64,000 nt of DNA from Heterodontus francisci (lineage: Eukaryota): NCBI RefSeq assembly GCF_036365525.1, contig NC_090379.1, forward strand, positions 110,213,350 to 110,277,349, read 5' to 3'. Below the pieces are notes generated by a model that worked only from the letters and a program-made list of their open reading frames with translations, was not told where the DNA came from and ran no database searches. Shown here piece by piece: positions 9,917 through 36,924 of the stretch (the first letter of the stretch is position 1; each line of letters starts with the position of its first letter). The position numbers were made by a program, and so were the translations under genes.

Positions 9917-10268
9917 TGGCGCAGTGGTTAGCACCGCAGCCTCACAGCTCCAGGGACCCGGGTTCGATTCTGGGTACTGCCTGTGCGGAGTTTGCAAGTT
10001 CTCCCTGTGTCTGCGTGGGTTTCCTCCGGGTGCTCCGGTTTCCTCCCACATGCCAAAGACTTGCAGGTTGATAGGTTAATTGGCCATTATAAATTGCCCC
10101 TAGTATGGGTAGATGGTAGGGAAATATATAGGGACAGGTGGGATGTGATAGGAATATGGGATTAGTGTAGGATTAGTATAAATGGGTGGTTGATGGTCGG
10201 CACAGACTCGGTGGGCCGAAGGGCCTGTTTCAGTGCTGTATCTCTAAAACTAAAACTAAAAACTAAAC
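9917..10268 (+). mobile_element. tRNA-derived HE1-like V-SINE
   Basis: A box TGGCGCAGTGG, B box GGTTCGATTC, V-domain GGTTTCCTCCGGGTGCTCCGGTTTCCTCCCAC, LINE-like tail with (CTAAAA)n. Confidence 0.9.
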
Positions 10269-10321
10269 GATGATGCAGAAGTCATGCAAGTCTCTGGAAA
10301 ACTTTCCAAAGGGCTTTGCAA

Positions 10322-10633
10322 TTTTTTTTTATTTAGAGATACAGCACTGAAACAGGCCCTTCAGCCCACCGAGTCTGTGCCGCCCAACAACCACCCATTT
10401 ATACTAACCCTACAGTAATCCCATATTCCCTACCACCTACCTACACTAGGGGCAATTTACAATGACCAATTTACCTATCACCTGCAAGTCTTTGGCTGTG
10501 GGAGGAAACCGGAGCACCCGGCGAAAACCCACGTGGTCACAGGGAGAACTTGCAAACTCCGTACAGGCAGGATCCAAAATTGGATCCAGGTCGCTAGAGC
10601 TGTGAGGCTGTGGTGCTAACCACTGTGCCGCCC
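10322..10633 (-). mobile_element. HE1-like V-SINE, inverted relative to its neighbour
   Basis: Reverse complement of the same family. Confidence 0.9.
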
Positions 10634-13438: not shown

Positions 13439-16400
13439 CTCTTTTACCTTATTCACATTCATTGCTTTCTATTTCCCTCCTGGTGTTTGATAAAGTGTCT
13501 ACCAAAACTCGTTTTCACAGCCACATCTCCTTCCTCAGTGACTGTCTCTGGCTGCAACTTATTCCATGTGGATTCCAACTGAAGTTTCATCCTTCATGTT
13601 TTGAATCCACCCAGGATTACAGGTATCTCTGAGAAATACAATATTCCTCGGACTGCTGTTCTTGCTGCATCCTGAGATCCATACTCAGTGCCTTGCACCG
13701 CCACATGTACACATTGGACTTCTCTCTCCAGCAGCACCACCTCACCTTATCTCAAAGTTGTTCTGCTCCACAGTTTCTTTCCATCCTTCGACTTATCTGA
13801 CACATTCACAGAAAACTTTTTTCTTCCTTTCAGGTGTTAAGGAACACAAACTCCAGCAGCTGATGGGGACTAGTGCCCCTCCAGATCTTCCTTCCCCTTC
13901 ACTTCCCTCTGACCCCATCGCTTCTGATCTGACCCCTTGCCGTAAATTCAATATACCTTCTGACCTTCCCCTTGCTGATGCTGACCGTTCAGTACTCAGC
14001 AAAGGACTCAGTTTTATCCCCTGTCGCCCTCACCTCAATGAATTTCGCGCTCGGCATGACGTTGAGCTCTGCTTCCATCGCCTTCACCTCTGGGCTTACT
14101 TCTTTGACCAGGAGTCCTCCCCCCAACCAGCAGACCCATTCACTGGCCGCCAGCATTCTCCCTCCACCTGGACCCCTCCCTCTGGCCTCTTACCCACTCT
14201 TGATCTTTTCGCTGAAAACTGTTGGTGAGACATCGGCCATCTCAGTTTCTCTGCTCCCCTCACTCCCTCGAACCTGTCCCCCTCTGAACTTGCTGCACAC
14301 CGTTCTCTTAGGTCAAACCCCGAAATTGTGATCAAAACTGCAGACAAGGGTGGTTCTGTTGCTGTCTGGCGGACCGACTTCTACCTTGTGGAGGCTGAGC
14401 GTCAACTCTTAGACACTTCTTCCTACCTCCCCCTGGATCAAGACCCTACCACCGAACATCAAGCTACTATCCACAGGAATTCCACAGACATCATCTCCTC
14501 TAGAGATCTTCCCTGTACAGCTTCCAACCTCATAGTCCCACAAACCCGGACAGCCCACTTCTATCTCCTTCCTAAAATCCACAAACCGGACTGTCCTGGC
14601 AGACCCATCGTTTCAGCCTGTTCCTGCCCCACTGAACTTATTTCTTTCTATCTTGACTCTATCTTTTCTCCCCTGGTCCAGTCTCTTCCCACCTACATCC
14701 ATGACTATTCTGACGCCCTACGTCATTTTGACAATTTCCAGTTTCCTGGCCCCAACCGCCTCCTCTTCACTATGGTCTCAGGGCTCTCCACTTCTTCCTT
14801 GAACAGAGGCCCAACCAGTCCCCATCCACCACCACCCTCCTCCGCCTGGTTGAACTTGTTCTCACATTGAATAACTTCTTCTTTAACTCCACTCACTTCA
14901 TTCAAGTAAAAGGATTTGCTTTGGGTACCCGCATGGGTCCTATTAATGCCTGTCTTTTTTTGGGATATGTTGAACATTCCTTGTTCAGTCCTACTCAGGG
15001 CCCCTCCGCCAACTCTTTTTCCGGTACATTGATGATTGCATTGGTCCTGTTGCCTGCTCCTGCCACGAACTGGAAAACTTTATCAACTTTGATTCCAATT
15101 TCCACCCTTCTCTCACCTTTACATGGTCAATCTCCGACACTTCCCTTCCCTCATCGACTTCTCTGTCTCCATCTCCGGGGATAGGCTCTCTATTAATATT
15201 CATTATAAGCCCACCGACTCCCACAGCTACCTAGACTACACTCTTCACACCCTGCCTCCTGTAAGGACTTCATTCCTTTCTCCCAGTTTCTCCATCTCCG
15301 ACGCATCTGCTCTGGTGATGCAACTTTCCACAACAGCGTTTCTGATATGTCCTCCTTTTACCTCAGCCGAGGATTCCACCCCACTATGGCTGACAGGGCC
15401 CTCAACTGTGACCTGCCCATTTCCTACACTTCTGCCCTCACCCCTTCCCCTCCCTCCCAGAACCATGACAGGGTTCCCCTTGTCCTCACTTTCCACCCCA
15501 CCAGCCTCCATATCCATATCATCCTCTGCCATTTCCGCCATGTCCAGTGTGATGTCACTACTAAGCGCAACTTCCCCTTCCCTGTCAGCATTCCGAAGGG
15601 ATTGTTCCCTCTGTGACATCCTGGTCCACTCCTCCATTACCCCCAACACCTTGTCTCCTTCCCATGGCACCTTCCCATGCAATCGCAGGAGGTGTAATAC
15701 CTGCCCTTTTGCCCCCTGTCTTCTCACTATCCAAGGCCCCAAACACTTCTTTCAGTTGAAGCAGCGATTTACTTGTACTTCTTTCAAATTAGTATACTGT
15801 ATTCGCTGCTCACAATGCGGTCTCCTCTACATTGGGGACACCAATTGCTGATTGGGTGACTGCTTTGTGGAACACCTTCGCTCAGTCCAAAAACATGACC
15901 CCGAGCTTCCTGCCGCTTGCCATTTCAACACACTCCCCTGCTCTCATGCCCACATCTCTGTCCTGGACTTGCGGCAGTGTTCCAGTGAACATCAACGCAA
16001 GCTCGAGGAACAGCATCGCATTTACCGATTAGGTGCGCTACAGCCTGCCGGACTGAACATTGAGTTCAATAATTTCAGAGCATGACTGGCCCCTTTTTTT
16101 TTTAGTTTTCTCTTTTCTTCTTTATTATTTTGATTTTATTTTAGTTTGTTCAATCATTCACTTTTTACCATGTGCCTGACCACTGTTTGTTTTCATGTTT
16201 GTGCTTTTGCCAGGGCTGTTCATTATTCTGTCTTTTAACACCCTCTCTGCACTAACACATTCTCTTTCACGACACAATTAACACACCCTTTGCCTTTGCT
16301 CCATGACCTTCTGGTCAGTTATTCACTGTGACCATCTGTCATATCAACAACTTCCCTTTTGTTATATTTTGCCACACCCCCACTTTATTTGCTTAAACCC

Positions 16401-16550
16401 TATTACATTTCTAACCTTTGGCAGTTCTGATGAAAGATCACTGACCTGAAATGTTAACATTCTCCACAGATGCTGCCAGACCTGCTGAGTATTTCCAGCA
16501 ATTTTTGTTTTTATTTCAGATTTCCAGCATCTGCAGTATTTTGTTTTTAT
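13439..16550 (+). mobile_element. Penelope-like retroelement (RT + GIY-YIG), frameshifted, nested in a CR1 fragment
   Basis: IKTADKGG, FYLLPKIHKP, GTRMGP, RYIDDC, HYKPTDSH, VYCIRCSQCGLLYIGDT; 15-bp flanking repeat GGTAG(T/A)CAGAGAGGT at 13424-13438 and 16551-16565. Confidence 0.92.
16423..16458 (+). ncRNA. Degenerate minimal type I hammerhead ribozyme motif in the PLE 3' region
   Basis: AGTT-CTGATGA-A-AGATCA-C-TGACCT-GAAA-TGTT-AAC: both core boxes, helix II with one mismatch, short helix I. Confidence 0.55.
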
Positions 16551-16825
16551 GGTAGACAGAGAGGTTGTTTCCCTTGGCTGGGGAATCTAGAACATGGGAG
16601 AACAGTCTCAGGATAAGGATCATTTAGGATTGAGATAAGAAGAAATTGCCTCAATCAACGGATTGTGAATCTTTGGAATTCTCCTCCCTTGAGGGTTGTG
16701 GATGCTCCAACATTGAGTATATTTAAGACTGAGATAGACAGATGTTTGTTCTCCCAGGTATTCAAGGGATATGAGGAGCTGAGAGGGGGTGGGGGTGGGG
16801 GGGTAAGTAGAGTTGAAGCCAAAGC

Positions 16826-17750
16826 TGTTACTGACAGGTGATAAGAGGTGTGGGTAGTTCTGACGGTTCATCTTCCAACTGACCACAGCAAGTGCTTGTG
16901 TTACTAGGGTTTTAACGCCTTTGTGTTTTATTTGTCAAATAATCAGACAGAAACAGGTTTTCCTGTGGGTTCAAAACAAAAAAGTAACTATTTATTGAAC
17001 AATATTCATTCGCCAAATTGTTGCTAGCGCCCCCACCGATGCATTCTCTCTCTCTCTCACACACCCATACACAAACACAAAAAAGATAGGAAAAGGGGTA
17101 AGTGGTTTGAAGTGAGGGAAGTGTTCAGGGTTCATGGTAAAATTGTTGAATTTTCTTGGAGGTCAATTTCTCTTTTAAAGTTGTGGGCCTGGGTTGTTTC
17201 TAGATTTTTCTGATGGTTGAGATTTCAGTCTGGAGATGGTGGTCACTCGCAGTTCCCTACTGCAGCAAGTTGAAGGATAGAATTCATAGCAGGGCTCCTT
17301 CTTTGGCTTTTGATGGGTGTCACAGCTCCTGGCTGGACAAGCTTTTATGATGTTCTTCTGATTATCTTCTTCTCTCTCCAGAGAGCTACTTTTTAAGATA
17401 AAAGTCTCTCACATGTTGCCTCTGTTGGGAGTCACAGATCCCCCTCCCTATGTTGAATAACAATGGCCAGGATGTGATGACTTCACACATTCCTTGTTTC
17501 AGAAGAATATATTCAATTCAAAAATGTCTCTTGGTGGCTTTACGATGGGTGTAATTGACACCTCTTAGCTTGGAATGTATCCTTTTGCCCTTAACAGACA
17601 ATAAGACAGTTTGAAAATACAGGCAGGTTGTTTGATCTTCAGTGGCCATTTTGCAGGACATTGACAACTTTTTAAATGAAAAAGTAAATGTTTCGAACTC
17701 TTCAGTTTGGGTTCTGTATTTTCATCATTGCACTTCTTGTGACCGTGACA
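16826..17750 (-). mobile_element. Solo LTR (~925 bp) in a CR1 3' UTR
   Basis: TGT...ACA termini; related to the LTR-like sequences at 52980-54004 and 63084-63270; CR1 tail resumes after it. Confidence 0.65.
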
Positions 17751-17854
17751 AAACTGAACCATGATCATATTAAAAAGTGGAGCATTCGATGGGCAATATT
17801 GCCTACCCCTACTCCTATTTCTTTTGTCCTTCTGTTCTTGTGAAAGGTCGACAC

Positions 17855-18202
17855 AAAGAACAAAGAACAGTACAGCACAGGAACAGGCCATTCGGCCCTC
17901 CAAGCCTGCGCCGATCTTGATGCCTGCCGAAACTAACACCTTCTGTACTTCCGGGGCCCATATCCCTCTATTCCCTTCCTATTCATATGTTTGTCAAGAT
18001 GTCTCTTAAACGCCGCTATCGTATCTGCTTCCACCACCTCCCCTGGCAGCAACTTCCAGGCACTCACCACCCTCTGTGTAAAAAGCTTGCCTCGCACATC
18101 CCCTCTAAACTTTGCCCCTCGCACCTTAAACCTATGTCCCCTAGTAACTGACTCTTCCACCCTGGGAAAAAGCTTCTGTCCATGTCGCTCATAACTTTGT
18201 AA
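17855..18202 (-). mobile_element. CR1/HER1 3' fragment
   Basis: TRGHRFKVRGAKFRGDVRGKLFTQRVVSAW plus 3' tail. Confidence 0.85.
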
Positions 18203-18719
18203 ACCCTGAAACCCTGAAACGTTAAGTCTGTTTCTCTTTCCACAAATGCTGCCTGATCTGTTGCCAAGATTTTCTGATTTTATTATGGAAGATTATACTT
18301 CAGGCATCAGCAGTGTTTTCATCTACTTCCTTTAAATCCTGGGATGAAAACTGCCTAGTCCTAAGGATTTGTCAGTCTTTAGTGCCATTATTTTCTTCAT
18401 GACTGTTAATTTGCTTGCATTAATTTTGGTGAATCCCCATCCTTGATTCAATATTAGTTTCCTTCAGATGTCCTGCACGCTAACCTCTTCCTCTGTTGTA
18501 AATACTGATGCAAAGAAATTATTTAACCTATCTGTCATTTCTATATTTTCATTTATAATTTCATCATCATCAATTTTAAGATAAGGAGTCCACATTTCTC
18601 TTAACCACTCTCTTTTTCCAAATATAAATTTAAAACATTTTTGTGTTGATTTTGATATTCTTTGCAAGTTTCTTTTCCTACTCCCTTTTTGTAACTCTTA
18701 CTGATTGTTGTGTCCCTTC

Positions 18720-19930
18720 CAAATACTGAATGGGGATAGGAGGGGGCAGATGTATTTGGTGGTGGCAGCAAGCGTGTGCTGGCAGAAATTGCAGAGAATG
18801 ATCTGTTCAACGTGGAGGCTGGTGGGGAAACCTATCATGGTTCTGGAGGATTGAGGACAGAAGTGTGTGAAATGGGATGAAAATTGTAAAGGGCCTTAAT
18901 ATCCTTGGTGAATACAAATCCTCGGTGGAAGAAATCGAAAGGCTTAAGGTGTGGAAGTGGTATCATCAGAACTGAGGTGATGGACACAGAGGAACTGCTA
19001 GCATAGTTAAGGAAGTGGATTGGGAGCATGGAAATCAAGGTAGCTGTGGGAGTCAGTGATTTTGTTTCAATCTTGCATGGGATCTAGGCATCACTGGCAA
19101 GGCCAGCATTTGTTGCCCATCCCGAATTGTTCTTAACAACTGGGTGACTTGCCGAGCCATTTCAGAGGACTGTAAAAAGTCAACCACATTGCTGTGGGTC
19201 TGGAATCACATGTAGGCCAGATCAGGTAAGGACAGCAGATGTCCTTCACTACAGGACATTTGTGAACCAGATGTGGATTTACAACATTCGATGATAGTTT
19301 CATGGCATCATTAATGATACTAGTTTTCAATTCTATTAGTTAATCGAATTCCATGAATTAATCGAATTTAAATTCCACCAGTTGCCATGGTGGAATTTGA
19401 ATCTATGTCACCGGGGAATTATCCTGGGCCTCTGGATTCCTCATCCAGTGACATTACCACTATGCCACTGTCTCCCCGCATAGATATTGTCTGACGGCCT
19501 ATTACCTGAAATGAAGATAGAGAAGTTGCGGAAGGGAAGAGAAGAGTTGGTGATGGAGCTGGTTAAAGTGAGGCGTGGGTTCAAATTTTAATGCAAAGCT
19601 AATGAAACTGAAAAGTGTTAAATTGATGGAGAGATTCTGGTGAGACACAGATATAGGTTGGATGAGATTGGGCAGGGAGTGATAAACTATTCTCAAGATA
19701 GGAAGAAATAAGTTCGAGGTGACAAGAACAGGCTCATCCGATAGGTCTACCAGAGCAGCCCTGTTTGTGAACCTTGGAAAGGAAGGCAGGATGAGCAGAG
19801 TTGGGAGCTTTGAGCCCAGAGGCCAAAGTTGGAAAATCTCCAGAACAGATGAGGTCACTGATCGTCTGAGAATCAAAGTAGTTGCTGTGATCTGTTGCAG
19901 ACTTGTGTGGAGTGTAAACATGTGAAGAAG
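18720..19930 (-). mobile_element. Old Penelope-like remnant 3' of GPCR B, interrupted by another repeat at ~19070-19480
   Basis: Minus strand KVHKQGCSGRPIG*ACSCHLELISSYLE, matching the PLE RT at 14570-14660. Confidence 0.7.
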
Positions 19931-19970
19931 CCCTGTAACCAGAATCAGTGATAGAAAGGTAGCTCTGATT

Positions 19971-20890
19971 TTAGGTGATCTGCTTTAATTGTTTAACCAA
20001 TTTAACAATTGCAGTGAATGGATATTTGACTGCATTCTTCAGCTGCTCTCTGAATTTAGTCTGAGTCACTGCATAAATACAGGTGTTGGTGCAGGTGCTC
20101 AAAAGCTGCAGCATGTAGCCAGATTGTTCAGTGATGTATGCAGGATCATGGGGACCTGTGTAATAAGAAATGTCAGCAATTCGCCAATAAAGGAAATATA
20201 GAACAGTTGTCATCCATAACAGTATAAAACTGCTAGATATAGTGAAGAGTAAAATGATGGATTTCCTTCGGTTCTCCATCTCTGGGTCAGTGTGACTCTC
20301 ACTCTTGCTGTGATCCAGTAGTTTCCTGCGGACTCTGCTGGCCACTAAAATGTGTCTGACAGTCAGAGCATTGAGCAGTAAAATCAGAACGAATGGAAGG
20401 AAAGGGGTTAAAATAGTACTGAGGATTTGAAATGTTACCCAGGCAGCTTCGGTGTAAAAGCTCAGTGATTCAATTGTCCCCCAGGGTACATTGTCAATTA
20501 TATATTTAGGTTCATATATAAAGTACCAAGGAATATTTTTCAAACAGAACAACACACTCATTGTCATTACAATCGCAGCCACAGTTTCCTCTGTACAATA
20601 TCTATTTTTCAGATTCTGGCAACAAATAGCAACAAATCGATCAAAGGTGAAAGCAACGGTAAACCAGACAGAAATGTCTGTGGCTGCAGAAAGCAGGACA
20701 AGTACGAGAGAACGTCCAGGAGTGGTGTCCAGGTAAGTACCTGGGAAATGAAAATGAACAAATCCAAACAGTATCACATCAGTGAAGATGACCAGTAGAT
20801 CTGCCACTGCCATGGCCACCAGGTAGTGAGTGATACATTTGGAGAGTCCGCACTTTCCTCGTGACAGGATCAGAATGGCCACTGAGTTAA
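19971..20890 (-). CDS. GPR139-like: GPR139-like GPCR paralog B exon 2, duplicated copy lacking its native exon 1
   Basis: Open frame TM1(part)-TM7, DRF, NTCIY; TTCCAG acceptor at 20891; intron cut by the duplication junction at 22715. Confidence 0.8.
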
Positions 20891-22718
20891 CTGGAATAAG
20901 TGGAACAAAAAACAAGAGAATTTCATATAACCATCTCAGAGAACATGGGAATGTCATAGGAACATTAGACTTGGCCATTCAGCCCATCAAACTTGTTCTG
21001 CCATTCAATTAGATCATGACTGATCTGTACCTTAACGTCAATTAACTGCCTCGGTTCTGTAACCTGCAATACCCTCGTCTAACAAGAGTCTATCAGTCTC
21101 ATTTTTGAAAATTGGAATTGTCCAAGCTTTAACAGCATTTTGGGGGGCGAGTTCCTGATTTCCACGACCCCGTTTGTTGGAAAGTCCTTCCTGATATCAC
21201 CCCTGAATAGCCTCGCACTAATTTCAAGGTTACGTCCCCTTCTTCTGGACTCCCCCACGAGAAGAATTAGCTTCCATTTACCCAATCGAATCCTTTACAA
21301 AATTAAACATTTCACTTAGTTGACTCCTTAATCTTTGATATTCAAGGGAATACAAGCCTAGTCTTTGCAACCTGTGCTTATAATTTAAACCTTTCAGCAC
21401 AGCTATCAGTCTTATGATTCTGCGTTTCACCACATCCAATGCCAATATATCCTTCCTGAGGTGAGGAACCCAGAACTGAATACAGTTACTCCAAATGGGG
21501 TCTATCCAGAGCTCTGTACAGCTGTAATTTAACTTCTATCCCTTTGTATTCCAGCCAACCTAGAAATAAAGGATAGCATTCCATTAGGCATTTTATTTTG
21601 TTTTTCTATGTGTCCCCAAGCTTTTATTGATTGCTATGTTTGGACACCAAGTTTCTCTTCTGATCCACAGTTCTGAACTTGTCCCCATTTGAAACACTTT
21701 CAGCTATCTTTCTGAGGTTTGAGTTGAATGACCTCACACGTTGTCATGCTAAACTCCATCTGCCATAGTTTTGCTCTCTCACTCAAGCAATTAATCTCGT
21801 TTTAAAACATTCTGCTCCCATCTAACTTTGTATTGTCAGCAAACTTGCATATGCAATTCTCTATTCCATCATCAAACTTATTAATCGATGCAGTGAAAAT
21901 CTGAGACTCCCTAATGCACCATGTTAGTTACCTCCGCAAAAAGCTCAACCAGGTTAGATATGACTTTCCATTTACAAATCTAGTTCCAGAAAGGGATCCC
22001 AGAGAGCAAGGGAGTTACACATAGTGATCTGAGAGGCAGGAAATTACAGCTCGTGATACCGGAGAGCAAGGCAATTACTGCTAGGGATTGAAGAGAGCAT
22101 GGGATTTATGTATCACGATTCCAAAGACAGCGGTACACTCAGAAGAATTGTGTGGTTATTAAAAAAAGGACACTTGCATTTCTATAGCTCCATTCACAAC
22201 CTCAGGGCATCACAAAGTGCTTTAAAGCCAATGAAGTACTTTTTCTTTGAGGTGTAGTCGCTGTTATAATGTAGGAAACGCAACAGCCATTTTTCACACA
22301 GCAAGCGCCCATCATCAGCAATGTGATAATGACCAGGAATGCTTCGCAATATCAAGGCAATTGAAGCATTTATAGCTTGGTCAGCATCTTGTTCTGGAGA
22401 TGCATTTCAAAAATCAATAATTATTTTGGAACATAGTAAAGAAATGGTGGTGTGAATCTTAACAAATATCATAGTGCAAGGATCAGGGAAAGAACAGACT
22501 TGGATAACTGAAGAAGGTGAACTTCAGAATTAATTCAGATTTGCTGTTGTCACAGAGTTGAAAATGTGTGAGGGGAGCCAGAAGATGAGACGATGGAACA
22601 AGGGATGATGGTTGATAAACACTGGTTTTAAAATTAGACAAGTCCTGACAGCAGAAGAGGCACCACCCTGGTTGTTCAGTTATTTATAGGATAGGGCCAT
22701 TCCACCTGCTCAAAAGCC

Positions 22719-25617
22719 ACCCAGGCAGCTTCGGTGTAAAAGCTCAGCGATTCAATTGCCCCCTAGGATACATTGTCAATTATATATTCAGGTTCATATA
22801 TAAAGTACCAAGGAATATTTTTGAAGCAGAACAGCACACTCACTGTCGTTGCAATTACAGTCACAGTTTTCTCTGTGCAATATTTTGCTTTCATTTTCTG
22901 GCAACAAATTGCAACAAATCGATCAAAGGTGAAAGCAACAGTGAACCAGACAGAAATATCTGTGGCTGCAGAAAGCAGGACATGTATGAGAGAACATGCA
23001 GGTGTGGTGTCCAGGTAAGTACCTGGGAAATGAAAATGAATAAGTGTAAACAATATCACATCAGTGAAAACGACCAGTAGATCTGCCATTGCCATGGCCA
23101 CCAGGTAGTGGGTGATACATTTGGAGAGTCCGCACTTTCCTGGTGACAGGATCAGAATGGCCACTGAGTTAACTGAAATAAATGGAACAAAACACAAGAT
23201 AATTATAGTTGCCATCTCAGAAAGCATGAAAATTTCATAGGAACTGAAGGACTTTAGAAGAGGAGTTGGCCATTCAGCCCATCGAACTTGTTATACCATT
23301 CAATTGGATTATGGCTGATCCATACCTTAACTTTATTTATCTGCCTCGGTTCCATAAACTTCAATACTCTTGCTATGCATATACTGCCTGCTATGTTTCC
23401 TGCATGACAGCAGTGACTATGCTTCAAAAATTCTCTATTGGCTGTGAAGCGCTTTGTGATATCTAGCTGTTGTGAAAGCTCATATATAAATGCAAGTCAT
23501 TTACTTCCTTTTTCTTTCTAACAACAATCTCATTTTTGAAATTTTGAATGGACCTAGCCATAACAGCTTTTTTGGGGAGAGAGTTCAAGATTTCCACTAT
23601 TCTTTGTTTGAGATATTGCTTCCTGAAAGCCGAGCTCCAATTTTAAGGTTATGTCTCCTTCTTCTGGACTCCCCCAACAGAGGGAACGGTTTCTCTCCAT
23701 CTACCTTATCAAATCCTTTAATTATCAGAGGCAATTCAACTGTTGACACTTACTCTTCCATATTCAAGGGAATACAAGCTGGGTCGATGCAACCTGTGCT
23801 CATAATTTAATCCTTTCTGCATCGATACCAGTATTGTGAAACTGCGCCTCACCTCCTCCAAGACGAATATATCCTTCCTGAGGTGAGGAGCCCAGAACAG
23901 AATGCAGTTACTTTAAATGGGGTCTAACCAGAGTCTCTACAGCTGTAGCCTAACTTCCACGCCTTTGTATTCCAGCCAACCTTGAAAAAAAGGATAACAT
24001 TCCATTCGACACTTCAATGATTTTTTTAAATATATGTATCAACGAGCTTTGAATGATTTCTGTATTTGAACGCAAAAGCTCTCATGTCTCATCCACAGTT
24101 CCTAACTTGTCCTGATTTAGAAAAACTTTGATCTATCCTTCTTCGGTCCAAATTAGATGACCTCACAATTTCCTGTGCTCATTTCCATCTGCCACAGTTT
24201 TGCTCACTCACTTAATTAACTGATGTCCCTTTGCAACTTTCAGCTCCCATCTAACTTTCTGTCATCAGCAACTTAGATACGTGACTCTCTGTTCCATCAT
24301 CCAAGTTATTAATTGATACATTGAAGAACTGAGACTCCCTTATGTATGACATTAGTTACTGTCTCAAAAAATTCAATGAGGTTAGACATGATTGTCCATT
24401 TACAAATCTAGTTACAGATAGGGATCCCAGTGAGCAAAGGAGTTACATATAATAATCTGAGAGGCAAAAAATTCCCGCTATTGATAACATGGAAAAGGCA
24501 AATATAGCTAGGGATTTAAGAGAGCATAGGACTTATGGACTTGGATCCCAAAAGCAATACATGTTTGTGAAAAATGTAATGGAATTGAAAAAAGAGACTT
24601 GCTTTTAGTAGCACCGTTCATGGCCTCGCCCTTCCCCCACCATCTCCCGCGTCCCACCCCCCCGCCCCGCCCAAAGTGATTTACATCCAACGAAGTGCAT
24701 TTTCCTTTGAAATGTAGTCACTGTTATAATGTAGGAAATGCAGCAGCCAATTTGCACACAGCAAACCCCCATAAACATCAATGTGATAATAACAATGAAT
24801 GCTTCACCATATAGATCATTTGTAAATTTTTCATTATTTTGTTCCGGAGATATTGTTTTGGAAATTGGTAAAGAAAGGATAGCATGAATCCGAGCAAGTA
24901 GCAGACAGGAAGAATCAGGGAAAGAGAAAACGAGGGCACAATGTTTAGTGAAGAAGATGAATTTCAGAATTAAATCAGATTTTGCTGTTGTAACAGAGTT
25001 GAAAGTGTGTGAGCAGAGCAGGAAGATGAGGAGATGGAAGAAAAGCTGATGGTTGATGAACTTGGGTTTCAAAATTGGACAGTTCCTGACAGTTGAAGAG
25101 ACACAACCCTGGTGGTCCAGTTATTTATAGGATAGGGACAGTCTACCTGCTCAAAATATTTCTTCCATAGTATTGAGTGGAATATATCTGGTTAAAAGTC
25201 TTTGGTATGCTGTAATTTGCTGCACCAAGCCTATTTCCTCTTGTCACCATTTATGGTCACACTTTCACACCGACATTTAGTATTGGATCTTCTGATGTAA
25301 ACATTCTGAATGACATTTCCCTATGTAATCAGTTACATTTTACGGTTTGTTGATGAAGCAATTGAATGACTCAAAATGGTTTTTGAACAATGTCTGGAAT
25401 TTATTCTAATAACTGAAATTTGTAAACACTAAAATATGGTTTTGAACAGAATTTGAAAATTCAAAAAGGATACATTTCAAAATAATATAATTAAATTTAC
25501 ATTGCAAAAGGTATTTGTTTACATTAAATTGTTAAGTAGCTTACCAAGAACTCCAACAACTGCAAGAAATGGATAGTAAATGTCTTCTATCTGGTGGAAT
25601 ATTGTTGGTTCACGCAT
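22719..25617 (-). pseudogene. GPR139-like: Truncated duplicate of paralog A (exon 1 25545-25617 intact; exon 2 22719-23172 cut, TAG at 22763-22765)
   Basis: Same 154-aa ORF as 4042-4506; ends at the junction. Confidence 0.88.
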
Positions 25618-25698
25618 TTTCTGTGAGATGTGATAGCTTTTGTCGATGCTGGAGGCAATAGCTCTGCCTAATTGCACAATGCATCCAGAGGAACCTTG

Positions 25699-25743
25699 TA
25701 TTTATACAGAAGGGAAATCTCTAGTGACATGCCTGTTGCATCA
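25699..25743 (-). promoter_or_regulatory. Duplicate of the paralog A promoter module
   Basis: Same sequence as 6978-7022. Confidence 0.65.
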
Positions 25744-28637
25744 TCATTACTATTAATTACAATTAATTGAACAAACAAGTGGAATCAATCATGTGAAAAC
25801 TTATATACGCATCATGGAATAAAATGTATTTAACTAGAGCTTACACAGACTTACAGTAAGATATTCCATTGAAAATATAATTGCATGTGAGCCTCCCAGA
25901 GGAAAATTATTGATCTATTAAGCATAGGTAGTTTCATCGATGGTATTGAAATTTTCTGTGGACCGTACCCTCTCAAATCAATATAAAATGTCTGTAATAT
26001 TTGGACAATTTGTAATGTATTTTCTTGTGTATTTGATACCAAAAGAGTTGAAAAAAATAATTTCTCTGCTTTGCAAATCAAGGAACTTCAGTATTAAAAA
26101 AATTAAACTTCTTGAAAACCAGATTTACTATTACAATAAGTAATCATAAAGGGCTTATAAATTATAGATGGTGCTACCTGTGAACACTTGTGTGTTGGAA
26201 CAACAACCTGTATTTCTAAACCACCTGTAACATAGAACAATGTCCCAACGTGCCTTACAGAGACATAATGAAGATGGCACTGAGCAAAAGAATGAGAGAT
26301 GAGGAAGGATGACCAAAGCTTCACCATTTCAAAAACAGGGGGCATAGATTTAAGGTAAGGGGCAGGAGATTTAGAGGGGATTTGAGGATTTTTTCTTTTC
26401 CCAGAGGGTGGTTGGAATCTGGAACACACTGCCTGAAGGGGTGGTAGAGGCAGGAACTCTCACAATATTTAAGAAGTATTTAGATGAGCACTTGAAACGC
26501 GATAACATACAAGGCTACGGGCCAAGTGTTGGAAAATGGGATTAGATTAGATAGGCGCTTGATGGCCATGACGGACATGATGGGCAGAAGGGCCTGTTTC
26601 TGTGCTGTATAATATTGACTCGATGAAAGAGATGGGTTTTAAAGAGGGTCAATGCCTTTGTCACTTACAGATTCAGCCAGGTTACCATCATCCACATTCT
26701 ACGAACTTCAGCTTATCTGAAAATCTACAGTCCAACTGTAAGCCCATACTAGTCCTTTGCACTAAATATCCCTGTCCCTGTTGACCCACATTGGTCTCTG
26801 TTCCTTCCAAGAATGAAATTTAAAATGATCACCCATGTTTAAATTCCTTTGCAGCATCACCTGTCCCTATTGCTGTAACTCCACACCTTCTACCCCAGCC
26901 CAGAATTGTGTTTTTCTCTGACTCTGGTCTTTTGTGCACCTCTCCCTCCATCTGACCCACTTTCATGACCAAGCCTTCACACTCTGGAATTCCCTCCCTT
27001 ATCCCCTCTGCCTCTTTATCTCCCTCTCCTTTTTCAGTCCCCCCATAAAACCCACCTCTTTGACCGAGTTTTTGGTCGCCCTTCTTAATATCTCTTTTAA
27101 TCCAATGCCTTTGTTTGCATGATTATTCCCCTGAAAAGCTATTTGTGATGTTTTTCTATGTTAAAGGTGCCATGTAAATGCAAGTTGCTGCAGTTGTTCT
27201 ATTAGTGTCCGCCTTGTCTCACTAGTGGCACTGATGTTTCTCAGTCTTCATGGTGTTAAGTTGAAGTCCCACTTCAGGACTGAAGTAAAAAACTCATTGA
27301 TGATAATTCGGTGTAGTATTGAAGGAGTGCTGCATTGCCGGTGGTGCTGTCTTTCAGTTAAGACGAGAGACTGAGACCGAGTCAGTCTTCCCAGATGTAC
27401 ATAGAAGAGACCAGGGCATTTTTTTCAAAAAGAACAGGGCCGGTAAAAGAAAGCACTTGCATTTATGCAATGGTTTTCACGACCTCAGGACATTCCAAAG
27501 TAATTTTCATTGAATTAGGTTACTTTTCTCTAAGTTCTCCTGGTTTCCTGGACATTATTTATCACTCAACCAACAACATGGAAAACTGATTATCTGGCAT
27601 CATTAATTTGATGGTGAGCTTGTCTCTTGGCCAATTAAGGGGGCATCCCTGTGAAAATCATATTGACTGCCCTTCACTTCCATCTCCCCCCAACCCCGGG
27701 ACTGGTTTGGCACCTGGAAACACTCCTGACATCGTCACGGCCACCCCGCCGCTCGGCAACAGGACCTCCACTTCAGTATGTAAACTATGTGGGAAATGCA
27801 TGGAAAGGTAATGTAATTGATTTTTGTGAAACGTTCACTTACCTTTCCAGGCAAAGAACAGCCCCAACTCAAACGTAAAATTCCTTTTTTACAGGAGAGA
27901 CAAGCATTCCTTCCTGGGAGAGTTCATTTCCTTGTCTGCAAACCCAAATCTCCAACATCAACTGGCTTTTAGCTGCTCCTGTGGTCTTCTTCACTGCAAA
28001 ATTGAAACTGACATCTTGTTAACAGAAGTCATAAGACTGTCATAAATTCTTCCTGTTGCTTTGATACAAGTTTACAGCCTGCACCTCAAACACAAAATGT
28101 CAACATTCAAGGCTCACTATTGACAGAATGTCCTTTTTTTTCAGTTAGAGGCACACAGACCTCTTAGTGTAAAAAACAAAATTCTTAGGACAACGTCGAT
28201 GCTGACCTTTTGAGAAAGGCAGCTGCCGATATATGAGAAGTGTTCAACCACTTCTAAAGTCTTCCCTTCAATATCAATAGCTGGAGCTTTAAATTCTTGT
28301 CTAGGGAAGGGCTGGTGTCTTGCTCATGTTTAGTTGAGAGATCAAACATTTGTATGCAGAGCTCGAGGTTGGCTTGAATGTCACTTGCAATGTGGGCCAC
28401 AACTGTGCAGTCATCGACATATTGTAAATAGTGGATATGCTGGAGGGTCAACTTAATCTTGGTTGTCAGTTGTTGAGCTTCTCATCAAGTCGAAACTGTG
28501 TCGTCACCCCTTGTGCAAGTTAGCCATAAATTAGTTCCATGAAGAGAGTAGGCACAATCGCACAACCTTGCTTGACGCCCGTCCAGGTACGAATGGGCTC
28601 AGCCTGCAAATCATTGCAAAGTTTGCTGTCATACCAT

Positions 28638-28989
28638 TGGCGCAGTGGTTAGCACCGCAGCCTCACAGCTCCAGGGACCCGGGTTCGATTCTGGGTACTG
28701 CCTGTGCGGAGTTTGCAAGTTCTCCCTGTGTCTGCGTGGGTTTCCTCCGGGTGCTCCGGTTTCCTCCCACATGCCAAAGACTTGCAGGTTGATAGGTTAA
28801 TTGGCCATTATAAATTGCCCCTAGTATGGGTAGATGGTAGGGAAATATATAGGGACAGGTGGGATGTGATAGGAATATGGGATTAGTGTAGGATTAGTAT
28901 AAATGGGTGGTTGATGGTCGGCACAGACTCGGTGGGCCGAAGGGCCTGTTTCAGTGCTGTATCTCTAAAACTAAAACTAAAAACTAAAC
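28638..28989 (+). mobile_element. HE1-like V-SINE, duplicate
   Basis: Copy of 9917-10268. Confidence 0.9.
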
Positions 28990-29042
28990 GATGATGCAGA
29001 AGTCATGCAAGTCTCTGGAAAACTTTCCAAAGGGCTTTGCAA

Positions 29043-29354
29043 TTTTTTTTTATTTAGAGATACAGCACTGAAACAGGCCCTTCAGCCCACCGAGTCTGTG
29101 CCGCCCAACAACCACCCATTTATACTAACCCTACAGTAATCCCATATTCCCTACCACCTACCTACACTAGGGGCAATTTACAATGACCAATTTACCTATC
29201 ACCTGCAAGTCTTTGGCTGTGGGAGGAAACCGGAGCACCCGGCGAAAACCCACGTGGTCACAGGGAGAACTTGCAAACTCCGTACAGGCAGGATCCAAAA
29301 TTGGATCCAGGTCGCTAGAGCTGTGAGGCTGTGGTGCTAACCACTGTGCCGCCC
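29043..29354 (-). mobile_element. HE1-like V-SINE, duplicate
   Basis: Copy of 10322-10633. Confidence 0.9.
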
Positions 29355-32159
29355 CAGGGCTTTGAGATTGATAGAATCAAATGCACTGACAGATCAATAA
29401 AGGTCACGTAGAGCTCTTTGCAATGCTCCACACATTTTTCTTGAATTTGTTGAGCGACCCGGATAATGTCTGCGGTCCCCCTGGATGGTCAGAAATCACA
29501 TTGGGTCTTTGTAAGGATGTCATCGCAGACAGATAAGAGGCAGTTCAGGAGGATTCATGTGAGACATGCCTCTATAATGCCCACAAATCGATTTTTCACC
29601 CCTCTTAAAAAGTGACACAATGATGGCACTATGAAAGTCGGAACGCAGTATCTCTTCTTCCCAGATTTTTGTCAAAAGGTCTGAGAGTTTGAGCAAGATT
29701 TCATGACCAACAGCTTTATAGATCTCTGAAGGAATGTTGTCCTGACCACACACTTTGTTATTTTTCATCTGTTATATAGCCTTTAGTAACTCAGCAAATG
29801 TTGGCAGCATATATAAATTTGATCCTCAAGCTGTTGAGGGATTATTTTAGTGGTTTGTCCAATTCTGTAGCCTTCCGATTGAGAAGGTTTGGGCAGTGCT
29901 CCTTCCAACGGTCTTGGATGGTTGCATCACCTTTGAGAAGAGTATTGCCATCTTCAGCTTGGATGGGGGGATGGACCATTTGTTTTTGGTCTGTAGATGG
30001 TCTTGGTGGCTGGAAGAAGCTGCACATTGTCGTATCTATCTGCGTAACACTGGATTTCATTGGCCTTCTCGACCCACCACTTATTCTTGATGTCATACGT
30101 CATTCTCTGAGCTTATGATTTGATTAGTAAATATTCTTCTCGTTTCTGTTGAGATCTAGGCTGATTTTGACATATAAAGAAGGCTTAGCATTTCTGATTG
30201 AGAAGTTTGTATATTTCTTTTTCTTCCTTGTAAGTCTGTGGTCTGTCCAGCAGTCATTTGCACCCCGCACGGCTCAGGTCAGAATGGTATCCTTCCTATC
30301 CTGGCTCAAATAATGACAGAGTCCAGGAGGTGCCAATGCTTGGATCAGCGATGTTGTCTTGCATTTATCTTTCTGCTGAAAGAGTGTGTTTGTGATGGTG
30401 AGCCCATGGTCAGTGCACTTGGCGAGGAGGAGGAGCCTTTTGATTTTCCCATTCCTACTTTCGCATTGGTGCCCTTCCAGATGGAGTAATTATGTCCAAC
30501 TCTGGCACTAAAGTCTCCCCGTCTTGTTTTGAGACTGCTGCCAGAATAGAATCCAGATCTGCTTAAAAGAGCTCCTTGGTTTCGTCAGTAGAATCGAGAG
30601 TGGGAGCATAAACACTGATGATTGTGGCTTACTGGTTGACACTAAGCTGAAGCCGTAGGCTCATGAGTGATTTATTAATGACAACTGGATGTTCCAAAAG
30701 TATATCTGTGATTCTATTTTTGATGTCAAACCTAACTCCCTGGATACGAATATCCTCCTCTGGTTTCCCTTTGCAGAAGAAAGTGTATCCTCCTCCTTCT
30801 TCTCTAAGCTGGCCTACTGCAGGGTTTCAATGACAACAGCAACATCGATGTTATATCTCATAAGCTCCCGAGAAATTATGGCAGTTCTCCTTTCAGGACA
30901 TTAACTGTTTTGATTGTTAATACAGTCGTGCATGTTCCAGATACAGAAATACATGCGTTTTTTTGCTTGTGTGTCTTTTTGGCCACAAGGATCATGGTCC
31001 CACTGTGTGTGGTTCCCTGGTCAGGACAGTTTGGGACAGCCTATGTTTGTGGCATCTTTTCCAGCCCCTTTCTCAAGTGAGGTGAGCAGAGGGGATCCTC
31101 TGGATTGCTCAGTCATGGATCCTGCTGCTGAGGAGTTACTTCTATCCCAAATCCAAGAGCTCAGTGACCATCAGGCATCCACCACCTACTTGCAGATTTG
31201 TGACCAGAGACATCCAGGTTCACAGCCCTGTGCCCGATGCCACTTGTCCATCGCCAGATGGCTTTTTGGTGTTCCTGGCAGAGGACTGTGTGTGTCATCT
31301 TTTAAAGTGAGGTACTCTGTGCACAGTTGACAATTGCGCAGTCTTGACGGGTTTACATTCTTTACCCAATGGCATGGCAAGCCATGATGACTGGAGAGTA
31401 TCAGTCCCACTGCAGCCTTCATCTGCCTCCACAGCCATTGATGTGAACACATGCCTCATTCATCTGCATGTTCCACCATTGAGGTCTTGAAACGCATGTT
31501 GTTATTGAGGTTCACAAATCTAGATACGCCCATATCAATGTAGCAGAGTCACCTCACTCAGGTTTTAGCTGGTACAGTCTTGGTGGAAAGACAATCAGTG
31601 AGCAGAGCCACTATCAATCCACCTTCCTGGGAAGTGACAACCAATCCCAGTGGAAAGCCCAAGAAAAAGAAATATGGAATGCAGATACAGCAAGCAATTA
31701 GGAAATCAACTGGCATATTGGATTTTATTTAAGGGGACTGGAGTATATGAATAAAGACTTCAAAAGGAAATTGGATGGCCATTTGAAGGAAATAGACTTG
31801 CAGGGCTATGGCAATTAAACGGGGGAGCGGGAATGAGTGACCTTCTCTGTCGTGAGCCAGCATGGACTCAATGGGCCAAATAGTCTCCTGCTGTGCTTTA
31901 AAAGACTCTATGACACTACGTCTTGTGACAATTGTACAAGGCTTTGGTGAGACCACACCTGGAATACTGAAGGAAGGATATACTTGCCTTGGAGGCAGTA
32001 CAGCCAATGTCCACTGGATTGGTCCCTGGGATGAGAGGGTTATCCTGTAATGAGAGGCTGAGTAAATTGGGTCCAAATTGCCTGGACTTTAGAAGAATGA
32101 GTGGTGATCTCATTGAAACATATATATTCTGAAGGGGCTTGGCAGGTAGTCAGAGAGGT

Positions 32160-35100
32160 CTCTTTTACCTTGTTCACATTCATTGCTTTCTATTTCCCTC
32201 CTGGTGTTTGATAAAGTGTCTACCAAAACTCGTTTTCACAGCCACATCTCCTTCCTCAGTGACTGTCTCTGGCTGCAACTTATTCCATGTGGATTCCAAC
32301 TGAAGTTTCATCCTTCATGTTTTGAATCCACCCAGGATTACAGGTATCTCTGAGAAATACAATATTCCTCGGACTGCTGTTCTTGCTGCATCCTGAGATC
32401 CATACTCAGTGCCTTGCACCGCCACATGTACACATTGGACTTCTCTCTCCAGCAGCACCACCTCACCTTATCTCAAAGTTGTTCTGCTCCACAGTTTCTT
32501 TCCATCCTTCGACTTATCTGACACATTCACAGAAAACTTTTTTCTTCCTTTCAGGTGTTAAGGAACACAAACTCCAGCAGCTGATGGGGACTAGTGCCCC
32601 TCCAGATCTTCCTTCCCCTTCACTTCCCTCTGACCCCATCGCTTCTGATCTGACCCCTTGCCGTAAATTCAATATACCTTCTGACCTTCCCCTTGCTGAT
32701 GCTGACCGTTCAGTACTCAGCAAAGGACTCAGTTTTATCCCCTGTCGCCCTCACCTCAATGAATTTCGCGCTCGGCATGACGTTGAGCTCTGCTTCCATC
32801 GCCTTCACCTCTGGGCTTACTTCTTTGACCAGGAGTCCTCCCCCCAACCAGCAGACCCATTCACTGGCCGCCAACATTCTCCCTCCACCTGGACCCCTCC
32901 CTCTGGCCTCTTACCCACTCTTGATCTTTTCGCTGAAAACTGTTGGTGAGACATCGGCCATCTCAGTTTCTCTGCTCCCCTCACTCCCTCGAACCTGTCC
33001 CCCTCTGAACTTGCTGCACACCGTTCTCTTAGGTCAAACCCCGAAATTGTGATCAAAACTGCAGACAAGGGTGGTTCTGTTGCTGTCTGGCGGACCGACT
33101 TCTACCTTGTGGAGGCTGAGCGTCAACTCTTAGACACTTCTTCCTACCTCCCCCTGGATCAAGACCCTACCACCGAACATCAAGCTACTATCCACAGGAA
33201 TTCCACAGACATCATCTCCTCTAGAGATCTTCCCTGTACAGCTTCCAACCTCATAGTCCCACAGACCCGGACAGCCCACTTCTATCTCCTTCCTAAAATC
33301 CACAAACCGGACTGTCCTGGCAGACCCATCGTTTCAGCCTGTTCCTGCCCCACTGAACTTATTTCTTTCTATCTTGACTCTATCTTTTCTCCCCTGGTCC
33401 AGTCTCTTCCCACCTACATCCATGACTATTCTGACGCCCTACGTCATTTTGACAATTTCCAGTTTCCTGGCCCCAACCGCCTCCTCTTCACTATGGTCTC
33501 AGGGCTCTCCACTTCTTCCTTGAACAGAGGCCCAACCAGTCCCCATCCACCACCACCCTCCTCCGCCTGGTTGAACTTGTTCTCACATTGAATAACTTCT
33601 TCTTTAACTCCACTCACTTCATTCAAGTAAAAGGATTTGCTTTGGGTACCCGCATGGGTCCTATTAATGCCTGTCTTTTTTTGGGATATGTTGAACATTC
33701 CTTGTTCAGTCCTACTCAGGGCCCCTCCGTCAACTCTTTTTCCGGTACATTGATGATTGCATTGGTCCTGTTGCCTGCTCCTGCCACGAACTGGAAAACT
33801 TTATCAACTTTGATTCCAATTTCCACCCTTCTCTCACCTTTACATGGTCAATCTCCGACACTTCCCTTCCCTCATCGACTTCTCTGTCTCCATCTCCGGG
33901 GATAGGCTCTCTATTAATATTCATTATAAGCCCACCGACTCCCACAGCTACCTAGACTACACTCTTCACACCCTGCCTCCTGTAAGGACTTCATTCCTTT
34001 CTCCCAGTTTCTCCATCTCCGACGCATCTGCTCTGGTGATGCAACTTTCCACAACAGCGTTTCTGATATGTCCTCCTTTTACCTCAGCCGAGGATTCCAC
34101 CCCACTATGGCTGACAGGGCCCTCAACTGTGACCTGCCCATTTCCTACACTTCTGCCCTCACCCCGTCCCCTCCCTCCCAGAAACATGACAGGGTTCCCC
34201 TTGTCCTCACTTTCCACCCCACCAGCCTCCATATCCATATCATCCTCTGCCATTTCCGCCATGTCCAGCGTGATGTCACTACTAAGCGCAACTTCCCCTT
34301 CCCTGTCAGCATTCCGAAGGGATTGTTCCCTCTGTGACATCCTGGTCCACTCCTCCATTACCCCCAACACCTTGTCTCCTTCCCATGGCACCTTCCCATG
34401 CAATCGCAGGAGGTGTAATACCTGCCCTTTTGCCCCCTGTCTTCTCACTATCCAAGGCCCCAAACACTTCTTTCAGTTGAAGCAGCGATTTACTTGTACT
34501 TCTTTCAAATTAGTCTACTGTATTCGCTGCTCACAATGCGGTCTCCTCTACATTGGGGACACCAATTGCTGATTGGGTGACTGCTTTGTGGAACACCTTC
34601 GCTCAGTCCAAAAACATGACCCCGAGCTTCCTGCCGCTTGCCATTTCAACACACTCCCCTGCTCTCATGCCCACATCTCTGTCCTGGACTTGCGGCAGTG
34701 TTCCAGTGAACATCAACGCAAGCTCGAGGAACAGCATCGCATTTACCGATTAGGTGCGCTACAGCCTGCCGGACTGAACATTGAGTTCAATAATTTCAGA
34801 GCATGACTGGCCCCTTTTTTTTTTAGTTTTCTCTTTTCTTCTTTATTATTTTGATTTTATTTTAGTTTGTTCAATCATTCACTTTTTACCATGTGCCTGA
34901 CCACTGTTTGTTTTCATGATTGTGCTTTTGCCAGGGCTGTTCATTATTCTGTCTTTTAACACCCTCTCTGCACTAACACATTCTCTTTCACGACACAATT
35001 AACACACCCTTTGCCTTTGCTCCATGACCTTCTGGTCAGTTATTCACTGTGACCATCTGTCATATCAACAACTTCCCTTTTGTTATATTTTGCCACACCC

Positions 35101-35272
35101 CCACTTTATTTGCTTAAACCCTATTACATTTCTAACCTTTGGCAGTTCTGATGAAAGATCACTGACCTGAAATGTTAACATTCTCCACAGATGCTGCCAG
35201 ACCTGCTGAGTATTTCCAGCAATTTTTGTTTTTATTTCAGATTTCCAGCATCTGCAGTATTCTGTTTTTTAT
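32160..35272 (+). mobile_element. Penelope-like retroelement, duplicate
   Basis: Copy of 13439-16550. Confidence 0.92.
35144..35179 (+). ncRNA. Minimal hammerhead-like motif, duplicate
   Basis: Copy of 16423-16458. Confidence 0.55.
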
Positions 35273-35547
35273 GGTAGACAGAGAGGTTGTTTCCCTTGGC
35301 TGGGGAATCTAGAACATGGGAGAACAGTCTCAGGATAAGGATCATTTAGGATTGAGATAAGAAGAAATTGCCTCAATCAACGGATTGTGAATCTTTGGAA
35401 TTCTCCTCCCTTGAGGGTTGTGGATGCTCCAACATTGAGTATATTTAAGACTGAGATAGACAGATGTTTGTTCTCCCAGGTATTCAAGGGATATGAGGAG
35501 CTGAGAGGGGGTGGGGGTGGGGGGGTAAGTAGAATTGAAGCCAAAGC

Positions 35548-36472: not shown

Positions 36473-36576
36473 AAACTGAACCATGATCATATTAAAAAGT
36501 GGAGCATTCGATGGGCAATATTGCCTACCCCTACTCCTATTTCTTTTGTCCTTCTGTTCTTGTGAAAGGTCGACAC

Positions 36577-36924
36577 AAAGAACAAAAAACAGTACAGCAC
36601 AGGAACAGGCCATTCGGCCCTCCAAGCCTGCGCCGATCTTGATGCCTGCCGAAACTAACACCTTCTGTACTTCCGGGGCCCATATCCCTCTATTCCCTTC
36701 CTATTCATATGTTTGTCAAGATGTCTCTTAAACGCCGCTATCGTATCTGCTTCCACCACCTCCCCTGGCAGCAACTTCCAGGCACTCACCACCCTCTGTG
36801 TAAAAAGCTTGCCTCGCACATCCCCTCTAAACTTTGCCCCTCGCACCTTAAACCTATGTCCCCTAGTAACTGACTCTTCCACCCTGGGAAAAAGCTTCTG
36901 TCCATGTCGCTCATAACTTTGTAA
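36577..36924 (-). mobile_element. CR1/HER1 3' fragment, duplicate
   Basis: Copy of 17855-18202. Confidence 0.85.

Follow-up and report, generated by a model that had tools for sequence, protein, structure and literature searches.

A cluster of 'GPR139-like' receptors in the horn shark (Heterodontus francisci) raises the question of what is produced when a duplication sets the promoter and first exon of a pseudogene ahead of the intact second exon of its neighbor. The window analysed (the whole stretch of DNA, 64,000 nt, with zero N) carries a tandem duplication of an 18.7-kb unit (blastn; copy 1, 3991..22715; copy 2, 22712..41435; neither assigned a strand), and its copies align over 18,726 columns at 99.797% identity, with 35 mismatches and 2 gap openings. 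The genes concerned lie on the minus strand: pseudogene A in its original form (2567..6896; exon 1, 6896-6824; exon 2 from 4451), the original intact gene B (38693..41882; exon 1, 41882-41810; exon 2 from 39612; product of 330 aa, RefSeq XP_067894304.1), and the intact paralog C (56462..60683; exon 1, 60683-60611; exon 2 from 57399; product of 336 aa, P0015). Read 5' to 3' in the transcript, the duplicated order is the promoter and exon 1 of A, a TAG-bearing stub of A exon 2, and a copy of B exon 2; these duplicated parts are called A' and B'. The breakpoints fall in two different same-strand genes and set the upstream portion of one ahead of the downstream portion of the other, which is the defining arrangement of a chimeric gene formed by tandem duplication.

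The junction itself (22712..22722, minus strand) consists of A exon-2 sequence, 3 bases (22718-22716), and B-intron sequence. The first of these bases differs from both A and C, the trio does not continue the B intron, and the join is out of register with the A/B homology. Differences between the copies (22 transitions, 11 transversions) form a pattern that looks biological; they are clustered, with 5 of 33 within the first 9 kb (p = 1.5e-4), a distribution compatible with conversion between real copies and with allelic mosaics alike. Because the window has no N, the junction is out of register with altered bases, and the differences look biological, the duplication is probably real, an out-of-register tandem event in a birth-and-death receptor cluster. 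Judged from the junction, end-joining or template switching probably fused a break in A exon 2 to the B intron.

Pseudogene A was inactivated prior to the duplication, as the TAG common to both copies indicates. Beyond the TAG, the original copy has an antisense retroelement insertion (approximately 2847-3839), with about 20 nt lost, and a 3-nt deletion further downstream; the element gives a weak RVT_1 match (E = 0.0011) below Pfam's cut-off, and two element open reading frames elsewhere in the window (32950-34569) had no Pfam match. In the protein tree (28 rows; 5 rows lacking the anchor motif left out; 10 of 24 inner branches open), A is without an intact close twin among the rows included. 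The coding exon 1 of A' (25545..25617, minus strand; 73 nt, phase 1, donor TTG/GTAAGC) is identical to that of the original (6896-6824) and is preceded by a TATA box, TATAAATA (25699..25706, minus strand), about 80 nt upstream of the ATG, which the three-way promoter alignment found identical in C and altered by one change in B. Over 250 columns upstream of the ATG, the same alignment gave 26 branch-specific changes in A, 24 in B, and 27 in C. With its TATA box retained and no excess of change relative to B and C, the A promoter looks undecayed. Beyond exon 1 lie the A' intron (23173..25544, minus strand; 2,372 nt) and the exon-2 stub (22719..23172, minus strand), which retains about 454 nt of native exon behind the proximal acceptor at 23172 and carries the TAG at 22765-22763, a site that encodes W161 in all 35 other aligned family members. 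The stub also holds two latent donors, one following 23023 that keeps the frame (380 aa) and one following 22844 that does not (140 aa); donors were scored with a human frequency table that ranks them only roughly.

B' exon 2 (19971..20890, minus strand) lies behind the distal acceptor at 20890 and is open to its stop. It differs from B exon 2 by 2 substitutions, one nonsynonymous (20167, Y266S) and one synonymous (20064, where B' has A; T300); the base proposed by the initial annotation to tell the copies apart, G at 20167 and T at 38889, is present as such in the assembly. Under neutrality, the B' frame would stay open with a probability of approximately 0.91 to 0.93, so an open frame is expected by chance and selection is not needed to explain it. 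The B' intron remnant contains two AATAAA hexamers (21592..21628, minus strand; starts at 21628 and 21597), a possible 3' end for a truncated transcript; the motif is not enriched (2 seen, 1.3 expected in shuffles), and its counterpart in the intron of the normal B gene (40348, 40317) is not used.

Both the anatomy of the locus and its reading frames agree with what the initial annotation had described: exon 1 of A' (25617-25545, phase 1, GTAAGC donor) lies upstream of B' exon 2, splicing from 25545 to 23172 is predicted to give a 160-aa product that ends at the TAG, and splicing from 25545 to 20890, across a chimeric intron of 4,654 nt, is predicted to give an in-frame 330-aa seven-transmembrane (7TM) protein with the N-terminus that the annotation had given. 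That the skip keeps the frame is expected and unsurprising, since the paralogs A and B share this phase-1 intron. The breakpoint left the dead acceptor between the two exons, so the chimera requires exon skipping; its open frame of 330 aa is available solely when the acceptor at 23172 is skipped. The 330-aa product matches Pfam 7tm_1 (PF00001) with E = 2e-14 over profile positions 2-260 of 260, a full domain of a class A G-protein-coupled receptor (GPCR), and is letter for letter the RefSeq entry XP_067894303.1 ('probable G-protein coupled receptor 139'), a predicted (XP_) model. Five of its 330 residues depart from those of intact B, each of the five occurring in other family members (of 35 rows: P4 in 18, F7 in 11, F17 in 4, L24 in 13, S266 in 3), and its exon-1 peptide is identical to that of the intact paralog P0014. 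The 160-aa product is identical to that encoded by the original A. It had been called a 4TM product, which is reasonable by homology, since a fourth segment (127-145) in the hydropathy scan of the 330-aa protein reaches 1.62, barely over the cut-off of 1.6; within the 160-aa product itself, only 3 segments pass that threshold.

Acceptors were ranked with a simple pyrimidine score, a crude measure, over 126 YAG sites, among which the distal acceptor came first (22.0) and the proximal second (21.5). At the two acceptors, pyrimidines fill 21 and 23 of 27 positions, with AG-free zones of 42 and 43 nt. The two exon-2 copies behind them are identical over their initial 30 nt, and the A and B paralogs are about 87% alike. 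Of two equal acceptors, the nearer is usually preferred.

An inverted pair of old repeat copies flanks the proximal acceptor on both sides and may form a stem. The upstream arm (23369..23497, minus strand), a repeat copy antisense to the transcript, lies in the A' intron, with 197 nt between it and the proximal acceptor, and the downstream arm (22172..22305, minus strand), a sense copy, lies in the B' intron remnant (134 nt, 68.7% identity, blastn E = 1.7e-9; chosen as the best of 27 inverted pairs). The predicted duplex has a z score of −8.5, with 0 of 100 shuffles equally stable, compared with 0.2 for a same-sense control. The minimum free energy fold of a 2.65-kb segment contains the stem (104 pairs) and gives 0 pairs to a weaker pairing within the A intron; 77 stem pairs have a probability above 0.9, and forbidding the stem costs 22.9 kcal/mol, all as an equilibrium prediction. 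Its helices are 2 to 10 bp long, and it would enclose the dead acceptor and the stub in a loop of about 1.06 kb. A comparable bracket was looked for at the B, B', and C acceptors and not found. Inverted repeat matches do bracket the acceptor of the original A, so such brackets are not rare in this DNA.

We favor, with a probability of about 0.55, the reading that the locus is a neutral by-product of a real duplication, its output mostly truncated and the 330-aa chimera at most a minor isoform. The proximal acceptor is a native one that matches the distal acceptor closely in strength, and B' exon 2 is preceded by two AATAAA hexamers, so that most of the output is likely to be truncated. Firing of the A' promoter would then mostly lead to splicing of exon 1 to the nearer, native acceptor at 23172, and the resulting RNA would end at the AATAAA pair, continue unspliced through B' exon 2, or be spliced from one of the stub's latent donors; by most of these paths the product would be the same 160-aa stub as that of pseudogene A or another defective one. 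Against the truncated-output view stand the predicted stem around the proximal acceptor, the RefSeq model of the skip product, the lack of enrichment and the disuse in B of the AATAAA pair, and the crudeness of the splice scores.

The reverse outcome, in which the arms pair, the proximal acceptor is looped out, and exon 1 joins 20890 to express a B-like receptor under the A promoter, is unlikely. The predicted stability of the duplex and its advantage over competing folds point toward it, as do the absence of a detected bracket around the B, B', and C acceptors and an A promoter without excess decay. The stem lies upstream of both AATAAA hexamers and so could form first. There is also precedent: in PMC10901737, TBXT exon 6 is skipped via an inverted pair (228/297 identity; separation 1,448 bp), and inverted pairs other than Alu can cause skipping too. 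Against it, the shark stem is weaker than that of TBXT, and the arms, as the best of 27 pairs and old repeat copies, could be complementary without selection. Transcription reaches the proximal acceptor about 870 nt ahead of the second arm, and the original A acceptor is bracketed as well. For Alu pairs, PMC13019027 reports a correlation between skipping and the stability of the stem that was confined to exons whose acceptors are weak; the looped acceptor here is native and second of 126 on our crude score, which puts it in the class without a significant stem effect. Distinctly doubtful, by comparison, is the fuller proposal that a single duplication both placed the pseudogene's working promoter and exon 1 before the neighboring exon and by accident completed the stem, with full receptor made at a useful level under the control of the dead gene. 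Very improbable is a silent A' promoter that leaves B' an orphan exon, or, in a variant, B' read from a start within the intron via the in-frame ATG at 20978. A was dead before the duplication (shared TAG), so its promoter was free to decay, and a 335-aa single-exon open reading frame does begin at that ATG; yet A' has kept its TATA box, exon 1, and donor undamaged, without excess change, and B has the same 335-aa frame despite its normal exon 1, which makes the frame a by-product of the pyrimidine tract.

A regulated switch between a 4TM decoy and a full receptor, as the initial annotation had suggested, is scarcely credible and found no support. In its favor, truncated GPCRs can be dominant negatives, and two near-equal acceptors do compete for a single donor. 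The 3' variable exons of Drosophila PGRP-LC are controlled by competing RNA pairings (PMC6191721, in part). The putative decoy is not new: the stub is older than the duplication and identically encoded by A. Neither a sign of selection nor a conserved regulatory element was seen at this young locus. Literature searches for 4TM decoys and for duplicated-acceptor experiments returned no directly fitting paper. It is also rather unlikely, if less so than the switch, that the tandem copies are two allelic haplotypes placed end to end by the assembly, or a variant on one haplotype, which would make the junction false or private. A divergence of 0.2% between copies is within the range of allelic difference. 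Four of 12 listed sequencing runs contain the stretch, all DNA, from one sample and one study, and possibly the source of the assembly; the read check covered 22601-42600 in runs X1, X3, X8, and X9, 4 of the 12 (X1 and X3 from one sample). No contig spanning 22712-22722 was among the 8 longest pieces listed per run, from repeat-swamped sets of 146,230 and 148,676 contigs. Unique contigs inside the duplicated span had depths of 21 to 31 in X1 and X3, without a clean single-copy baseline, and X1 bins adjoining the right breakpoint and further out (46.8 and 80.4) each combine several contigs, which leaves them without use as a baseline too. X8 had a depth of about 0 to 1.5 in low-repeat bins, and X9 (RAD) almost no reads at informative sites. 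The alleles recur in another sample, with both present at 32076 in X8 (2 T of 3 reads). On the other side, there is no gap, and the junction lies in nonhomologous sequence with altered bases, which a haplotype merge would rarely invent. At 37646, X1 and X3 show a third allele (G>A), G being the base in each of the two assembled copies; this excludes the reading of two copies as two haplotypes if the X1/X3 sample is the assembled animal.

On the favored reading, the locus is probably a birth-and-death by-product of a known kind. Tandem duplications can shuffle regulatory sequence and yield chimeric genes (Rogers, Shao and Thornton 2017, PMC5460883, in part), and the cases in that text likewise have breakpoints in two neighboring genes, the 5' end and promoter of one coming to lie ahead of the other's 3' portion; in the shark, the 5' donor is a pseudogene, the partners are close paralogs, a dead acceptor lies between them, and the chimera is predicted from DNA alone. 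With inverted-repeat loop-out (TBXT AluY/AluSx1, PMC10901737; PMC13019027; PMC13019944; each in part), the locus shares inverted copies that flank an acceptor and exon within about 1 to 1.5 kb, their pairing being predicted. Unlike that of TBXT, the shark pair was created by the duplication junction rather than by a new insertion, is shorter and less alike (134 nt, 69%), and would loop out a broken terminal-exon stub without a native donor. PGRP-LC, as far as the excerpt of PMC6191721 goes, also has one upstream exon, tandem downstream acceptors, and competing RNA pairings, but its cassettes are all functional and its pairings conserved, whereas the shark locus has a stop-bearing stub and pairing between old repeat copies.

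The initial annotation had described promoter and exon recycling from a dead gene. The potential for a chimera is real and the A promoter appears undecayed, but the product would be nearly a second B; with only 5 residues between them, any gain would lie in regulation alone. Should the skip occur, the locus would be a compact natural case of a receptor cluster reusing a dead gene's promoter, with a testable RNA-structure cause; literature searches found no such events in this lineage. Should it not occur, the locus would serve as a warning, since XP_067894303.1 would be an automatic model that links exons from two genes over a dead acceptor and makes the intact receptors of this family look more numerous than they are. 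Gene turnover is routine in this cluster: among 23 RefSeq models on the same contig, there are 9 pairs above 93% identity, and 7 of the 23 lack the canonical exon-1 N-terminus, some perhaps through annotation errors. A literature search found no paper describing this receptor expansion, and no 'GPR1..' mention was found in the available portions of PMC8455134 and PMC11979771.

By sequence comparison, the receptors are a separate expanded family. Identity as a GPR139 orthologue was considered and rejected. Human GPR139 (PDB 7vug, 9m42), a class A 7TM receptor, is the nearest solved structure by sequence, but its match reaches only E = 1.4e-11 (47 bits), whereas the best 120 of 2,781 database matches are all from cartilaginous fishes, at 56 to 100% identity and at least 384 bits.

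Class A receptor genes of two exons each form a cluster on the minus strand of the window, embedded among many repeats, with the transcription order C (intact paralog, 336 aa), B (intact paralog, 330 aa), A' exon 1, the A exon-2 stub, B' exon 2 and the original pseudogene A, where A' and B' are duplicated copies of parts of A and B. Self-comparison aligned a tandem duplication (3991-22715 with 22712-41435; 99.797% identity over 18,726 columns), the copies differing by 35 mismatches and 2 gap openings. At the junction, A exon 2 runs into the B intron at a point some 370 nt below B's donor, which leaves B' without exon 1. The initial annotation had proposed that the duplication set exon 1 of a dead gene before an intact exon 2; the duplication, the exon-1 loss in B' and the position of A' exon 1 upstream of B' exon 2 were all confirmed in the assembly. 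Splicing of A' exon 1 (25617-25545) to the proximal acceptor (23172) would again give 160 aa, and to the distal acceptor (20890) a 330-aa chimera, whose intact frame is no surprise given the phase-1 intron common to the paralogs; the distinguishing bases were also as described (G at 20167, T at 38889). In anatomy the locus is a putative chimeric gene of the tandem-duplication kind described in PMC5460883.

The duplication is very probably real. An assembly artefact or one-haplotype variant is unlikely: the 0.2% difference also fits an allelic level, contig depth within the duplicated span was 21 to 31 against a single-copy baseline that is not clean, and none of the 8 pieces listed per run spanned the junction; however, the window is without any N, the junction is out of register with bases altered at a site where A and C agree, and the copy differences comprise 22 transitions and 11 transversions. 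In contigs of X1 and X3 (DNA read runs from one sample), copy-1 alleles appeared at 8 listed sites (one in X3 only), and position 37646, at which the two assembled copies do not differ, showed a third allele. Copy differences were uneven: the first 9 kb (3991-13000) held 5 of the 33 substitutions and the remainder (13000-22715) 28 (p 1.5e-4), from either conversion between copies or an allelic mosaic.

The chimera matches RefSeq XP_067894303.1, a predicted model, letter for letter, and differs from B (XP_067894304.1) at 5 of 330 residues (S4P, L7F, I17F, I24L, Y266S), all five of which occur in other family members; the intact paralog P0014 has exactly the same exon-1 peptide. Original A already encodes the same 160-aa product, and its TAG is older than the duplication; thus no new decoy arose, and a gain, if there is one, would lie in regulation. 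Two substitutions fall in B' exon 2; given that about 3.4% of changes create a stop, the computed probability that its frame survives in the absence of selection is 0.91-0.93.

We consider the locus most likely (probability about 0.55) a neutral by-product with a truncated main RNA. A crude score placed the two acceptors first (distal, 22.0) and second (proximal, 21.5) among 126 candidates, and the proximal one is native and retains about 454 nt of its own exon; of two equal acceptors, the nearer is usually preferred. RNA could also end at an AATAAA pair (21628 and 21597) before reaching B' exon 2, although two such hexamers do not exceed chance (1.3 expected), and latent donors in the stub are predicted to yield defective products (140 and 380 aa). 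Judged from the sequence, receptor would be made only by a clean skip of the proximal acceptor. The stop of the main truncated form lies in the last exon, where junction-dependent decay would not apply. A silent A' promoter, leaving B' an orphan exon, is quite improbable: TATA box, donor and exon 1 are all retained in A, the 250 alignment columns preceding the ATG show 26 branch-specific changes in A, 24 in B and 27 in C, and in coding sequence the branch to A is not a long one (over 228 codons, 7 synonymous and 13 non-synonymous changes, versus 8/22 and 11/26 for the other two), from which we infer that inactivation looks recent and that the promoter may work.

A meaningful chimera produced by looping-out is doubtful. 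Its candidate stem, which the initial annotation did not mention, pairs an antisense repeat copy in the A intron (23369-23497, minus strand) with a sense copy in the B' intron (22172-22305, minus strand), matching over 134 nt at 68.7% (E 1.7e-9; duplex z -8.5 versus 100 shuffles), and is predicted to loop out the dead acceptor and stub. In the predicted fold of a 2.65-kb segment it replaces weaker pairing internal to the A intron, and the most stable fold lacking it is 22.9 kcal/mol less favourable; none of the B, B' and C acceptors was found to have a comparable bracket. However, its helices are only 2-10 bp, it is the best of 27 inverted pairs found, and the original A acceptor is also bracketed, by other inverted matches. 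TBXT exon 6 is skipped through an inverted pair (228/297 identical, 1,448 bp apart; excerpt of PMC10901737), and this locus possibly works alike, but it lacks the weak acceptor to which an excerpt of a genome-wide Alu study (PMC13019027) confines the correlation of stem stability with skipping. From the initial annotation, the potential for a chimera stands in anatomy and frames, whereas a regulated decoy switch is hardly credible.

The top protein match (100% identical) is a horn shark (Heterodontus francisci) protein named 'probable G-protein coupled receptor 139'. The closest solved structure, human GPR139, matches only at E 1.4e-11, so the name applies only loosely to what is an expanded family; the product is a class A receptor, not a GPR139 orthologue. 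At E 0.001 or better 2781 proteins match, the best 120 of 2781 all from sharks, skates and rays; in cartilaginous fishes the family is very large, and GPR139 is only a distant relative of it. Our literature search found no published description of this expansion, and a paucity of GPCRs in cartilaginous fishes is stated in an extract of PMC8455134; the size of the family is probably of more interest than the chimera locus. Turnover is common, with 9 pairs above 93% identity among 23 same-contig RefSeq models, 7 of which lack the canonical exon-1 N-terminus (some perhaps annotation errors). Near-identical same-contig sets of family proteins (P0011/P0123/P0124/P0125, P0013/P0126 and P0005/P0007; 96-99%) indicate further recent duplications, and three of their models lack a normal exon 1 and begin directly with exon 2.

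B (38693-38715) and B' (19971-19993) extend 6 codons beyond A's stop, where many paralogs end (324 aa), and C carries a 12-residue extension. An intronic in-frame ATG opens a 335-aa single-exon frame (19974-20978; 38696-39700) whose pyrimidine-tract codons resemble the first membrane helix; the frame through the acceptor is likewise open in A' and C. A young-looking retroelement 3' end (2847-3839; 295-aa open frame, 8-bp repeat tail), presumably CR1-like, is inserted antisense into A exon 2, from which about 20 nt are missing; the left breakpoint of the duplication is only about 150 nt away. A decayed element, whose frames look reverse-transcriptase-like and nuclease-like, is present in both copies (13605-15848; 32326-34569); we take it to be Penelope-like, and a Pfam search of its frames gave no match. 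A long CT-rich simple repeat (51898-52530) separates B and C.
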